From: Pirellulales bacterium
GTDB lineage: Bacteria; Planctomycetota; Planctomycetia; Pirellulales; JAICIG01
DNA length: 14,119 nt
Direction of reading: 5' to 3'
Assembly: GCA_035534975.1 (NCBI GenBank)
Contig: DATLQY010000933.1
Coordinates: 1-14,119, forward strand
Shown one piece after another: positions 1 through 3,582 of the stretch (its first letter is position 1; every line of letters starts with the position of its first letter). Made by a program: the position numbers and the translations under genes. Below the pieces are notes generated by a model. That model was not told the origin of the DNA. It saw nothing but the letters and a program-made list of their open reading frames with translations, and did not search any database.

Positions 1-267
1 GCGAATCGAACAAAGCCAGTCGCATACCACGACGGTTGGTTTCCGAAGTCGCGATTTGGTGGTCCCCTCCCGGTTCCAGGGCAACATGACTTTGTTCGGC
101 GGAAGAGGATCGTCAATTCTCGTGGAACCGACGACCACGGCAAACGGCTCGTCATCTTTGATTTCCTCCGTGGAAGTAAGCACGACCGCGGGGCGTCTCT
201 TCGTGGTCTTTCCGTCGGGGCTTGTCAAAAGTGCCCAGACGACACGGCCTTGCACGATCGCCGGCAT
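1..267 (-). CDS. PemK/MazF-family toxin (mRNA interferase-like), 3' end truncated by the window edge (89 codons visible)
   Basis: Manual minus-strand translation starting at ATG 267-265 gives MPAIVQGRVVWALLTSPDGKTTKRRPAVVLTSTEEIKDDEPFAVVVGSTRIDDPLPPNKVMLPWNREGTTKSRLRKPTVVVCDWLCSIR. GRVVWALLTSPDGKTTKRRPAVVLT aligns with the E. coli MazF N-terminus GDLIWVDFDPTKGSEQAGHRPAVVLS. PTVVVCDWLCSI matches the Kid/PemK VVRCDQPRTID region. An in-frame stop lies at 301-303, so 267 is the first ATG. No stop occurs before the window edge, which is why the ORF track does not list it. Confidence 0.8.
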   Translation of the reverse strand, partial: MPAIVQGRVVWALLTSPDGKTTKRRPAVVLTSTEEIKDDEPFAVVVGSTRIDDPLPPNKVMLPWNREGTTKSRLRKPTVVVCDWLCSIR

Positions 268-281
268 CGCTTCGCCCCCAT

Positions 282-884
282 TCAAAACGGCGACTCTTCT
301 TCATGTTCGAACCATTCCGGCGGCGGAGCTCGCTTGGCTGCCAAAGCCAACAGCCGCGCGTTTGAAGGAACGATGCGCTTAAGTTCCTCGACGGCCGCCG
401 CGTCTTCCAAATGGGCTTCGACGACCAATGCGGCCTCGACGGTCGGTTTTGCTTCCGCAATCGGACCATCGTAGGCTTTGGAGGCTGCAGCCTTGACGAA
501 GAATGGCAAAGCCAGCGTCTCGGTCCCATCAACGATCAGGTGGAACTGGTACGCGCCCAGTTCCCGAAATCCTACCATCAGGTTCGTCACGATGCTCGTC
601 CCGGCCGGCCCTTCGGGATTTAGACTGCTTCGTTTCGCGTTCAACTCCAAGTCCTCGCTCATGGGCAAGCGCTCACCATTGGGCGTCGTCAGTTCGACCC
701 GAAACTTGTGTCCGGTGCTCGGTTCGCCTGGCCGCAGGAGCAACCGGGCCACTAAAGCCAGCGGAGGCCCGACGAAGGGCAACGACGTCGCCTCCAGCCC
801 GTCGACGTCCGCTCCAAAAATGCAAAGCCGTCCGTCCTGAAGTTGACCGGCGGTGTTCGCCAAGAATGCGTAGGACAGTTCCAT
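282..884 (-). CDS. Hypothetical 200-aa protein, translationally coupled to the downstream MazF-like gene; candidate non-canonical antitoxin partner
   Basis: ORF of 200 aa with ordinary, non-R/P-biased composition. GGAGG lies 5 nt upstream of ATG 884. Its stop at 282-284 is 14 nt from the MazF-like start. The acidic C-terminal tail is PPEWFEHEEESPF. I recognise no domain. Confidence 0.6.
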   Translation of the reverse strand: MELSYAFLANTAGQLQDGRLCIFGADVDGLEATSLPFVGPPLALVARLLLRPGEPSTGHKFRVELTTPNGERLPMSEDLELNAKRSSLNPEGPAGTSIVTNLMVGFRELGAYQFHLIVDGTETLALPFFVKAAASKAYDGPIAEAKPTVEAALVVEAHLEDAAAVEELKRIVPSNARLLALAAKRAPPPEWFEHEEESPF

Positions 885-944
885 GATTTCCTCCCGGTAT
901 TCGACTTGCCTGGTGCCCTCGCCGAATTTGCGACGGTATGATCA

Positions 945-995
945 ACCTCATTATACGGCACGCGACGGGAAATGAGACATTTTCTCATGAGAAAG
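945..995 (-). promoter_or_regulatory. Candidate promoter for the 282..884 / MazF-like operon, with a palindromic operator
   Basis: Plus strand 950-955 reads attata, which is a perfect TATAAT on the minus strand, about 66 nt upstream of ATG 884. A 14-bp perfect palindrome tttctcatgagaaa at 981-994 overlaps the expected -35 region. An adjacent aatgagaca half-site lies at 971-979. Confidence 0.35.
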
Positions 996-1353: not shown

Positions 1354-3582
1354 CTAATTCGCGGCGCCGCTCAAGGCCTTCTTGGCCTGCTGCTTGATCT
1401 TCTTGGCTTCCGTGGCATCGACATTCCAGCCGCGCGGCGGCCCGGGACAATGGACGACCTTGAACTGCAAAGTCACATTTTCGTCATTCGACGCCACGGC
1501 CCCAAATTGATCCAACGACCAGATGGCCAGGGGGCCATCGACGACGTGCGAGATCAAGTTGGGACGTGCCAGCAGCACGCCGCGATTGAACAACCCTTTT
1601 TCTCCCTCGAGCACCAACTCGATCGCGTCGCCTGGCCGCCAATCGAACGCCAGTCGGCCGTTCGCGTCGTCCTTCAGGTAGTCATGCTCGCTCTCGTATT
1701 CCTGGTTTTCGCCTGCCGCGAGCGTCCAGTCGTGCGCCGGCGTACTGGCCTGCGCGCGTCCCGACGCGCCCACGGTAATGACGCGGGTCGTACCGAGGCC
1801 GGCCTCGCGCGCCGCGTAGCCGCGTTCGATCCGTAGCGTCCACGGCGTGCCGGTTTGCGCCGCCTGGTACCAGCCCTTGAGCACCTTCTGTACGACTTCG
1901 TCCGGCTCATTGCGGATCACCACATCGGGGTCGGCGCCCGGCGCCGCGCAATTCACCCACACGCCTGCCGCCGTCCGCAACGCTTCGAGCCGTAGATTCG
2001 CGCGGCCGAGCCAGTCCTCCCAAGGCTCGCGACTCGCCGAGTCGCACAGCCGCTTCAACTCGGCGTCGGCGGACAGCCAGGGCTTGGCGCGCCGGCGCAG
2101 CGCTTCGATGCTCGCCCGCCACTCTTTGATCCGCGCGGCGACCGCCGGCTCCTTGATCAGCCACGATTCATAGAGTCTCGTGACATCGTTCGCCTGGTAC
2201 GGGTGCTTGACCGTGACTTTTTCCTCCCAGGCATTCCTGGCTTTCCTGCCGTCCTCAGCCGCGGCCTGGTCGGCGCTCTGCATGCCGGCACCGCTCGCCG
2301 GCGGCGGCACGCCCGCCACCTGTTGATTCAGTTCCGCCAGGGCGGCTCGGATCTCCCGCAGCTCTTCGTTTTTCTCGTTCACGATCGCTTCATCGAGCTG
2401 GCGTTCCATCTCGGTAATTCGGTTCGCTTGCGAGACGTTCGTCGCCTTGGCCTTGGCCAATTGGTCGCCGACTTCGATGCCCTTCCGCCTGGCGTCGGCC
2501 AGTTCCGTCGCCTGGCGCCGTACGAGGACCGAGAGGTAGACGCTCAAAGTACACGAGACCATCGCTACCGCGAGCGCCGCCGCCAGCCGGCGGATCTGGG
2601 CGCCGCGGCGCGCCGCATCCCATGACTTCAGTCGCCGCAATACGTCGCTCGCGTCGGAAGGCGACGCTTGAGATTGCCAAGTCCCTTTTGGCCCCAGCCG
2701 GCCGAAACCCGATGGGCCGGGCGCCGGTTGACCCAGGAGCAGTGCTACGACGGTGATGAACCGCCGAACGGGATTCGTCTGGTCGATCAACTCGCCCAGA
2801 CGCCTGGGGCGGTGCCGCCGCGCCAATCGCATTCGTAGCACCGGTTCGATTCTTGCCCAGAATTCGTCGACCGAACTCGCCCCGTCAGCATGTTCCAACA
2901 ACTCTTGGCGCCCCCCCAGGGCCAATTCACACGCGGAGAGGGCCAACCCTCGCAGGTCTTCCATTGGGCTCAAGGTTGCGGCGGGTTCGAGCACACCCAG
3001 CGACCGATAGACGCGCGATTCCGGATCTTCGACGCGGTGCCCCGACCAGGCGGCCAGCGCGCCCGCTACGGGACCATCGAGCCACACGGTCACGTCGTCC
3101 TTCTGATCATCGGATTCTTCGACGTAGATATTGCACGGCCGAACGTCGCCGTGGACGAGGTGGCGAGCATGCATTTCGGCGAGGCCCGCGAGCACTTGCT
3201 CGACGATCGACAGCCAGGCCGCTGGTCCGAAGGCGTCGCTTCGCTCGGCCATGAGCTTGGAAAGCGCTTCGTCGTGCCGATGTCCAACCAAGAACATGCC
3301 GCTCGGCGTCGTCGAGCCGGTCTCGACGGGCAGCGAAACGTGAAGAAGTTGAAGCCCGACGCGTTCGGCAAGCCAGGCTTCCAATCGCGGCTTCCAGCCA
3401 GGCCAATCGTCCCAGCCGTCGCTGGTCGAGGCCGGCGGCAGGAACTGTACCAGCCGTTTTTTCGCGGCACCGTTCCGTGAGTCGGTGGCCTCGAACTCGT
3501 CGCCGAGACAACCAGCGCCGCGTCGCGCGCGATCGAGCTTCAGCCCGGCCGGCAGCAGCTTCTGGTACTCGGTCATCTCCAT
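1354..3582 (-). CDS. Membrane-anchored Hanks-type Ser/Thr protein kinase (non-RD, HGD catalytic loop) with coiled-coil and a ~350-aa extracytoplasmic C-terminal domain of unknown function
   Basis: 742-aa ORF. The N-terminus has a G-loop-like GAGCLG, a candidate beta3 Lys in AAKKR, and the catalytic loop HGDVRPCN (canonical HRDLKPxN). One TM helix (LAAALAVAMVSCTLSVYLSVLV) is followed by an EELREIRAALAELNQQ coiled coil, then an unrecognised C-terminal domain. Confidence 0.8.
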   Translation of the reverse strand: MEMTEYQKLLPAGLKLDRARRGAGCLGDEFEATDSRNGAAKKRLVQFLPPASTSDGWDDWPGWKPRLEAWLAERVGLQLLHVSLPVETGSTTPSGMFLVGHRHDEALSKLMAERSDAFGPAAWLSIVEQVLAGLAEMHARHLVHGDVRPCNIYVEESDDQKDDVTVWLDGPVAGALAAWSGHRVEDPESRVYRSLGVLEPAATLSPMEDLRGLALSACELALGGRQELLEHADGASSVDEFWARIEPVLRMRLARRHRPRRLGELIDQTNPVRRFITVVALLLGQPAPGPSGFGRLGPKGTWQSQASPSDASDVLRRLKSWDAARRGAQIRRLAAALAVAMVSCTLSVYLSVLVRRQATELADARRKGIEVGDQLAKAKATNVSQANRITEMERQLDEAIVNEKNEELREIRAALAELNQQVAGVPPPASGAGMQSADQAAAEDGRKARNAWEEKVTVKHPYQANDVTRLYESWLIKEPAVAARIKEWRASIEALRRRAKPWLSADAELKRLCDSASREPWEDWLGRANLRLEALRTAAGVWVNCAAPGADPDVVIRNEPDEVVQKVLKGWYQAAQTGTPWTLRIERGYAAREAGLGTTRVITVGASGRAQASTPAHDWTLAAGENQEYESEHDYLKDDANGRLAFDWRPGDAIELVLEGEKGLFNRGVLLARPNLISHVVDGPLAIWSLDQFGAVASNDENVTLQFKVVHCPGPPRGWNVDATEAKKIKQQAKKALSGAAN

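Follow-up and report, generated by a model that had tools for sequence, protein, structure and literature searches.

A MazF-type toxin gene and its DUF6941-containing partner in a Pirellulales bacterium: a candidate fused form of a three-gene toxin-antitoxin module

The locus described here lies at one end of a 14,119-nucleotide (nt) stretch of DNA from a Pirellulales bacterium (contig DATLQY010000933.1, assembly GCA_035534975.1; the whole stretch is referred to below as the window), and the question that it raises is which protein may act as the antitoxin of a MazF/PemK-like toxin whose gene directly follows a 200-amino-acid (aa) open reading frame (ORF). In our reading, the two genes form a MazF-type toxin-antitoxin operon in which the antitoxin gene corresponds to the fused first two genes of a three-gene module, and we assign this reading a probability of about 0.6. 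The window would then represent the fused form of a tripartite toxin-antitoxin family that is associated with the domain DUF6941 (Pfam PF22091) and has been undescribed so far; no paper in the literature library that was searched named DUF6941 or PF22091, and a search on tripartite or immunoglobulin (Ig)-like antitoxins returned nothing matching. The parts of this reading differ in strength. That the locus encodes a MazF-type toxin-antitoxin pair is highly likely, and the comparisons with relatives make it likely, with good confidence, that the 200-aa gene is a fusion within a tripartite module. The neutralization of MazF by the tail of the 200-aa protein is probable, and a role for DUF6941 as a chaperone- or scaffold-like accessory is proposed tentatively and by analogy.

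Regarding the toxin, positions 1–267 of the window read without stops on the minus strand as MPAIVQGRVVWALLTSPDGKTTKRRPAVVL...PTVVVCDWLCSIR, which amounts to 89 residues, and the frame then runs past the window end. The complete toxin is 118 aa in length; its 29 C-terminal residues, which a first-pass annotation of this DNA had put at about 20, were recovered from identical contigs (L002:10618-10971; related contigs and loci are cited by labels beginning with L and single proteins by labels beginning with P). The same annotation had recognized a PemK/MazF toxin at this position, and the Pfam model PemK (PF02452, gathering cut-off 23.1 bits) agreed with it, giving the full protein 36.1 bits (E=8e-9, model positions 2–103 of 109) and the 89-aa fragment of the window 23.3 bits. 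As a single sequence, the toxin aligned end to end with Mycobacterium tuberculosis MazF6 from the PDB (E=1.9e-4), and a profile of six related toxins reached 6.6e-9 for MazF6, approximately 2e-4 for other solved MazF chains, and 1e-3 for MazF7. KRRPAVVL of the toxin stands opposite KRRPVLVI of MazF6 in the alignment, and the GST motif downstream is retained; the loop Arg and the downstream Ser/Thr are, by alignment, the putative catalytic residues. The assignment of the downstream gene to the MazF/PemK family is supported by these comparisons, in which the toxin looks like an ordinary member of that family. Neither the toxin nor the 200-aa protein had a match in NCBIfam or PADLOC.

The start codon of the toxin lies 14 nt past the stop codon of the 200-aa ORF (268–281), and because the gap is exactly 14 nt, there is no space for a small gene between them, as had been stated at first pass. 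The 14-nt spacing is repeated in a paralogous copy of the locus (L006, 5513 to 5528). The exact sequence of the 200-aa protein was present on five independent contigs or assemblies, one of which is the Pirellulales metagenome-assembled genome (MAG) GCA_035531595.1. The intact 118-aa MazF-like ORF (L001:10603-11022) was uncalled in the NCBI MAG record and called on contigs from ENA and JGI, and modules of this type can thus escape annotation.

The 200-aa protein gave a single match in Pfam and NCBIfam searches, namely, DUF6941 at residues 5–131 (64.7 bits, E=1.3e-17, model positions 2–125 of 125; gathering cut-off 27 bits), and no AbrB, ribbon-helix-helix (RHH) or helix-turn-helix (HTH) domain was detected by them. 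The first-pass annotation had described a partner of non-canonical type that has an additional N-terminal domain, no recognizable AbrB or RHH motif, and an acidic tail ending in EWFEHEEESPF, and this description was borne out. An AlphaFold2 (AF2) model built on a 145-sequence alignment had a mean pLDDT of 90 (single-sequence AF2 reached only 46), with residues 1–132 being predicted as all beta-strand, 133–160 as disordered, and 162–196 as helical, the tail helices at a pLDDT of 87–91. The predicted fold of DUF6941 is an Ig-like beta-sandwich and is neither SecB-like nor of the RHH, AbrB or HTH type; UNC119 and PDE6D were considered as fold relatives and rejected, their Foldseek TM scores of approximately 0.3 being too weak to mean anything. 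DUF6941 domains are acidic, with a median isoelectric point (pI) of 5.0 and a net charge of -6 (159 sequences), and for the window protein the net charge is about -5 over the domain and -6 over the tail. Conserved positions of the domain are M1, A6, A9, A12, G24, D28, P36, E54, H59, G70, G110, and D119.

An exhaustive HMMER search for DUF6941 (E<=1e-3) yielded 531 clusters at 50% identity, most of them 135–148 aa in length, and a minority of 167–200 aa that end in one of two related tails. Tail type (a) reads L..LA...PP.EW(F/Y/L) followed by acidic residues, and tail type (b) reads SWDELD..AMSP..L..IA.Y.RSTGQASA. The core motif of the window tail is common to 15 other tails and small proteins, and the linkers between domain and tail in fused relatives are short and hydrophilic. 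The last 69 residues of the window protein, when searched alone, had no Pfam match.

The evidence that carries our reading comes from relatives in which the same parts are encoded by separate, translationally coupled genes that immediately precede the gene for a MazF-like toxin. P0005, a toxin 44% identical to that of the window, sits in a three-gene operon of the type seen in L008 (3 contigs), in which the gene for a 142-aa DUF6941 protein is followed, with an 8-nt overlap, by the gene for an 86-aa protein and then, after a 9-nt gap, by that for PemK. The 86-aa protein ends in ...SLKRLAEKHPPSAEWFEGEEDRPF, and since its C-terminus aligns with residues 157–200 of the window protein (40% identity, E=3e-7), the 200-aa protein appears to be a fusion of genes 1 and 2 of an L008-type module. 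A small antitoxin gene elsewhere, with the 200-aa protein unlinked, had been named at first pass as an observation that would speak against the pairing; a small gene does exist in the relatives, but its product corresponds to the C-terminal part of the 200-aa protein, and the linkage to DUF6941 is kept. The order of a separate DUF6941 gene, a gene for a 74–95-aa protein, and a toxin gene is found in L008, L012, L015, and L026. The small proteins of L008 and L026 end in the window's own type of tail (PP.EW and acidic residues), that of L015 ends in the related RSxGQASA, and that of L012 is divergent. The toxins of the split modules matched PemK at 9e-7 (L012/L028) and 3e-6 (L026), while the split module L015, from an Actinomycetota MAG, combines a MazF-like toxin with a small protein of tail type (b), and a further one (L027) is cut by a contig end. 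Gene order and tight coupling are conserved among the split loci across several phyla.

Fused forms are not confined to the window. At least six additional lineages of fused forms, which between them carry two types of tail, are dispersed through the family tree, and because fused forms are interleaved with unfused ones in a rough neighbour-joining ordering, the sequences suggest that fusion or fission has been repeated in this family. One fused module adjoins chemotaxis genes (L043) and another adjoins sigma factor and PSCyt genes (L044/L045), while L049/L050 and two modules of tail type (b), L048 and L009, lie in neighbourhoods unrelated to that of the window. In L043, L044/L045, L048, and L049/L050, the toxin gene starts 4–22 nt downstream. 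All of the fused-module toxins matched a family toxin profile at E=1e-24 to 6e-32 (Z set to 1e6), and Pfam PemK was passed or nearly passed by three of the four that are intact. Altogether, MazF-like toxins were linked to DUF6941 in at least 11 distinct loci; the contigs of P0003, P0009, and P0065 stop directly past the gene and provide no downstream context.

Two side observations concern these relatives. A MazF-like subgroup with the motif PGGHP.TGL (L026:684-1067, L015:4725-5120, L048:3051-3440) carries a His where the window toxin has the loop Arg (PHPAMVL versus RRPAVVL), scores poorly or not at all with Pfam PemK, and may have a divergent active site. Frameshifts occur in long-read-style assemblies, in the DUF6941 gene of L015 (4001–4434) and in the toxin gene of L009 (4013–4541), and represent either errors or pseudogenes.

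The features of the window that enter into the argument are as follows.

1–267, minus strand: toxin gene, first 89 of 118 codons by translation, truncated at the window edge; ATG start codon 265–267.
268–281, minus strand: intergenic spacer of 14 nt, ATGGGGGCGAAGCG on the coding strand as read from the sequence; G-rich, Shine-Dalgarno-like stretch for the toxin.
282–884, minus strand: 200-aa ORF including the stop, taken from the ORF list; putative fusion of DUF6941 with an antitoxin-like tail.
489–884, minus strand: residues 1–132, DUF6941 domain, predicted Ig/FN3-like beta-sandwich.
417–488, minus strand: residues 133–156, linker, predicted to be disordered (AF2 pLDDT approximately 51–85) and variable in length (paralog insertions and deletions).
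285–416, minus strand: residues 157–200, conserved antitoxin-like tail of two predicted helices and PPPEWFEHEEESPF; proposed MazF-neutralizing segment.
890–895, minus strand: Shine-Dalgarno sequence GGGAGG, 5 nt before the ATG of the 200-aa ORF, seen in the sequence and kept in the paralog.
950–955, minus strand: TATAAT (-10-like), 65 nt before the ATG of the 200-aa ORF, at the junction with the repeat element, seen in the sequence.
981–994, no strand: perfect 14-bp palindrome TTTCTCATGAGAAA, beside and not over the presumed -35; any function is putative.
952–1340, no strand: imperfect long inverted repeat filling the intergenic region (inverted repeats I1–I7; three copies of a 27–30-nt unit).

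The paralogous copy of the pair belongs to the same MAG (L006, L011, L023) and lies in a larger segmental duplication, which also contains, upstream of the pair, a truncated copy of the 742-aa kinase-like gene that lies upstream of the operon in the window (L011:2976-4133; 63% identity over residues 214–514) and, from the gene downstream, approximately 300 nt of its 5' end. The paralog might be taken to show that the two genes move as a cassette, but this idea was rejected because the paralog is part of this larger duplication. The toxin-antitoxin pair is intact in the paralog while the flanking genes have decayed or been truncated. The ratio of nonsynonymous to synonymous substitution rates (dN/dS) between the paralogs was 0.20 for the fusion gene, 0.16 for the toxin gene, and 0.15 for the tail, and the linker of the paralog differs from that of the window by a 7-residue insertion and a 3-residue deletion. 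Both genes are under purifying selection between these two paralogs of one MAG.

Upstream of the 200-aa ORF, the first-pass annotation had described a TATAAT and a perfect 14-bp palindrome over the -35 region as the classic autorepression layout of toxin-antitoxin operons. Both elements are present, but the palindrome precedes the presumed -35 by 2 nt; at a spacing of 17 nt from TATAAT, this hexamer is GTCTCA (973–978; three of six matches). A sigma-70 scan of positions 1–1500 called no promoter; the transcription start probably lies downstream of the TATAAT (950–955). The palindrome is only marginally unusual: four 14-bp palindromes occur in the window against 1.4 expected, and P was approximately 0.03 when the intergenic region of 469 nt was shuffled and 0.085 for the upstream 150 nt. 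Furthermore, the TATAAT and the palindrome lie in one arm or end of the 390-nt hairpin-forming repeat at 952–1340, which has nested arms and folds at -208 kcal/mol (z=-14.3). Within its 27–30-nt units, the box AATGAGACA occurs three times against 0.04 expected, and the palindrome half-site ATGAGA(A/C)A recurs inside the units. A search of Rfam over positions 1–1500, with the repeat included, gave no meaningful match. This repeat looks like a miniature inverted-repeat transposable element (MITE)-like or other repeat element and is probably context, not part of the toxin-antitoxin module. The upstream region of the paralog is without the repeat element and the palindrome, and keeps TACAAT and a nearly identical 5' untranslated region (5'UTR). 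Upstream palindromes are not shared among the related loci; -10-like boxes precede the DUF6941 start by no more than approximately 100 nt in L012 and L015 (TATAAT) and in L022 (TACAAT), which fits a position of DUF6941 as the first gene of the operon. Classic autorepression via the palindrome is not supported by these results, since the elements are part of a repeat arm, the paralog has no such palindrome, and no DNA-binding domain is recognizable in the protein; autorepression by the 200-aa protein is likewise unsupported because it is acidic and Ig-like.

Some observations on the flanks of the operon may be added. The 742-aa protein encoded at 1354–3582 on the minus strand showed a kinase catalytic-loop signature only, its Pkinase and Kdo matches being below the cut-off; a PADLOC PD-T4-6 match at 1e-9 covered residues 103–160, and the middle part of the protein is coiled-coil-like. 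On the 3' side of the toxin (L002) are genes for a 473-aa protein without an assigned family, an FHA-domain protein, and an ABC transporter. The NCBI MAG contig (L001/L010) equals the window from the toxin-antitoxin operon to approximately position 1310 and then diverges completely, with KdpD and histidine-kinase genes in place of the 742-aa gene. The break (approximately position 1311; L001:9450-9600) falls inside the outer arm of the repeat and points either to a rearrangement or to an assembly that is chimeric at this repeat.

Among the alternatives to a fused tripartite module, the most conventional is an ordinary two-component type II system, in which DUF6941 would be the DNA-binding and dimerization domain of the antitoxin and the complex would repress its own operon at the palindrome. 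The layout of a folded N-terminal domain, a linker, and a C-terminal tail does mirror that of canonical antitoxins, and a palindrome 2 nt from the presumed -35, a recurring half-site, and an overrepresented AATGAGACA box are what such an operator might look like. However, the domain is acidic without any HTH, RHH or AbrB signal, and its charge and fold make DNA binding unlikely. The motif copies belong to the hairpin-forming repeat, the paralog retains only the -10 and the 5'UTR, the palindromes upstream of related loci are inconsistent and no sigma-70 promoter was called, and most relatives carry DUF6941 as a gene of its own; this explanation is in our view distinctly unlikely. It is far less probable still that the linkage is incidental or an artefact, with a DUF6941 gene joined to a small antitoxin gene by a frameshift in sequencing or assembly. 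The stop and start codons overlap in split loci, such that a single indel would fuse the frames, and frameshifts are found in these very genes in some long-read assemblies (L009, L015). The identical ORF in five independent assemblies, the retention of the fusion in the paralog with another linker length and a dN/dS of 0.2, the other fused lineages with their two tail types scattered in the tree, and the conserved, tightly coupled gene order in split loci of several phyla have largely refuted this explanation.

The intactness of both ORFs in both paralogs and the purifying selection on them also speak against the view that the locus is a decayed or domesticated remnant, whose MazF-like protein would be inactive and show no toxin-antitoxin behaviour. 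The modest Pfam PemK score, the His for the loop Arg in the relatives L026 and L015, and the position of the locus in a duplicated, partly decayed chromosomal segment would be in keeping with it, but RRPAVVL and GST are retained in alignment with MazF6 and the tight coupling of the genes is conserved, and we consider a remnant improbable. A different role is assigned to DUF6941 if it is a trigger sensor that, like CmdC in CmdTAC, binds a phage or stress-derived ligand and releases or exposes the tail for degradation, such that the module would serve in abortive-infection defence. A third toxin-antitoxin component that senses a capsid protein provides a precedent (PMC11618068), DUF6941 stays the same beside several toxin types, which is what one would expect of a dedicated third component, the conserved polar residues D28, E54, H59, and D119 are candidates for a ligand or metal site, and PADLOC PD-T4-6 gives weak matches to the 742-aa kinase-like neighbour. 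These points are set against the lack of a PADLOC match for either the toxin or the 200-aa protein, the absence of any relative in a tblastn search of PLSDB plasmids and a scan of viral contigs, neighbourhoods that are housekeeping-like and not a defence island, kinase matches that span the catalytic loop only, and the lack of a known ligand or trigger; we regard a defence sensor of this type as unlikely.

DUF6941 also occurs beside genes other than those for MazF-like toxins. In L013 and L025, DUF6941 is followed by a small protein and an approximately 185-aa protein with a sub-threshold GNAT match, the two latter proteins being 29% identical (E=2e-12). In an uncultured Planctomycetia MAG (L019, 3235–4417), the order is BrnT-like protein, CopG antitoxin, and DUF6941, with a TAATG stop/start overlap; the BrnT-like match (E=5e-5) is below the Pfam cut-off, and the CopG_antitoxin match, in a 169-aa protein with a C-terminal extension of approximately 70 aa, is above it. 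The third gene of L020 has a weak HEPN likeness (PDB, E=0.03), the second gene of L022 has a weak HicB likeness (E=0.3 and 0.8), and VapBC and PIN genes are near DUF6941 in L029 and L040, where the linkage is less tight. Because the second gene or tail varies with the type of toxin and DUF6941 is constant, the tail may be the toxin-specific part and DUF6941 a generic partner.

Considering the fused reading of the locus, we propose that the tail would occupy the RNA-binding groove of the MazF dimer in the manner of the C-terminus of MazE, which is acidic and contains Trp. DUF6941 would hold the otherwise disordered antitoxin peptide, covalently in the window and non-covalently in the split systems, in which a hydrophobic N-terminal segment of the small protein may dock on DUF6941. 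The N-terminal regions of the split small proteins (40–66 aa, median 46; maximum 9-residue hydropathy 2.1) are longer and more hydrophobic than the linkers of the fused forms (median 26.5 aa, hydropathy -0.3; Mann-Whitney P approximately 0.004, n=5 versus 12), as would be expected if a docking segment were no longer needed after covalent joining of the parts; the sample of this comparison is small and non-independent, with boundaries set by eye and phylogeny uncorrected. The domain may stabilize or oligomerize the peptide and control its availability, and could possibly also sense a trigger, like CmdC. Still more tentative is an extension to the whole family, in which DUF6941 would define a new tripartite class with an Ig-fold third component (chaperone, scaffold or trigger sensor) that resembles those of toxin-antitoxin-chaperone (TAC) systems, is promiscuous, and is fused in some lineages. 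The partner toxins would be MazF, GNAT, and BrnT, possibly with HEPN, HicA, and PIN, and the Ig domain would control a disordered peptide such that the toxin is freed when the domain is titrated or disengaged.

Several points weigh against the proposed module and its mechanism. The 16-sequence tail profile returned noise only when compared with Pfam and the PDB, and matches no known antitoxin family. The model of DUF6941 has a generic Ig-like fold, and a fold of this type alone is uninformative on function. About a dozen distinct DUF6941 loci, mostly of Elusimicrobiota, Omnitrophota, and Gemmatimonadales types, had no toxin gene within approximately 1 kb downstream, and these loci suggest that at least one role of DUF6941 lies outside toxin-antitoxin systems. 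The associations with toxins other than MazF comprise one or two loci each, several on sub-threshold matches, and the loci were sampled by means of patterns derived from the clade of the window, which biases the linkage frequencies. A toxin-free DUF6941 clade with the signature MELDFAFLADAA...GKLFV.GGAFDT (L014, L016–L018, L021, L030–L042) is found mostly in Elusimicrobiota and Omnitrophota MAGs, with L021 from Gemmatimonadales.

In comparison with known systems, the fused module resembles MazEF and PemIK (Kis-Kid) in its MazF/PemK toxin, in the position of the antitoxin gene upstream with a short gap, and in the acidic, Trp-containing tail. It differs in that the window antitoxin has no AbrB/SpoVT or RHH domain and begins with an acidic Ig-like DUF6941, in that its tail matches no MazE or PemI family, and in that relatives spread the antitoxin over two genes. 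As in type II systems in general, a co-oriented, tightly spaced pair recurs in unrelated neighbourhoods (L043, L044, L048, L050), whereas the DNA-binding autoregulatory domain, which is common but not obligatory in antitoxins of this type, is absent from the window antitoxin. We read the module as a type II, TAC-like tripartite toxin-antitoxin system in which the toxin is of a known family and the antitoxin side is new.

TAC systems have been described for HigBA and a SecB-like chaperone in M. tuberculosis (PMC9098466) and for CmdTAC (PMC11618068). The DUF6941 loci would share with them a constant third component that accompanies different toxin-antitoxin families, with many MazF-like loci and thin evidence for the others, and an extension of the antitoxin, which is placed at the N-terminus in the split MazF-type modules and at the C-terminus in the CopG protein of L019 and on which a dependence on the third component may rest by analogy; the gene order of L019, namely, toxin, antitoxin, and third gene, is also that of TAC. 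Unlike the SecB-like chaperones, however, DUF6941 is Ig-like, mostly stands first in its operon, and is repeatedly found fused to the antitoxin. To our knowledge, such a fusion of the third component to the antitoxin is not known in TAC systems. Another point of comparison is Panacea (PanA, DUF4065), a single domain that occurs with many unrelated toxin domains and was found via gene neighbourhoods (PMC8832971). DUF6941 is likewise one uncharacterized domain beside several toxin types; in contrast, PanA is alpha-helical and itself neutralizes, whereas here a variable tail or small protein appears to be toxin-specific and DUF6941 is constant. Known third-gene types also include omega-epsilon-zeta, paaR-paaA-parE, and pasABC (PMC8832971). 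As in these systems, the first of the three genes in the split modules would be neither the toxin nor the direct antitoxin. The first genes of these systems encode RHH or HTH DNA-binding regulators, or, in the case of PasC, a small helper, from which DUF6941 differs as an acidic, Ig-like domain without a DNA-binding signature.

If this reading is correct, it would provide the first functional context for DUF6941, whose family comprises approximately 530 clusters (50% identity). Until now, the well-studied dedicated third component has been the SecB-like chaperone of TAC and CmdTAC, and an unrelated Ig-fold accessory with a comparable role would imply that accessory-dependent antitoxins evolved more than once. 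The coexistence of fused and split forms represents a natural experiment on the role of the accessory. Since their antitoxin has no known antitoxin domain, MazF modules of this type evade antitoxin-based detection, and the locus adds to the sparse knowledge of toxin-antitoxin systems in Planctomycetota.

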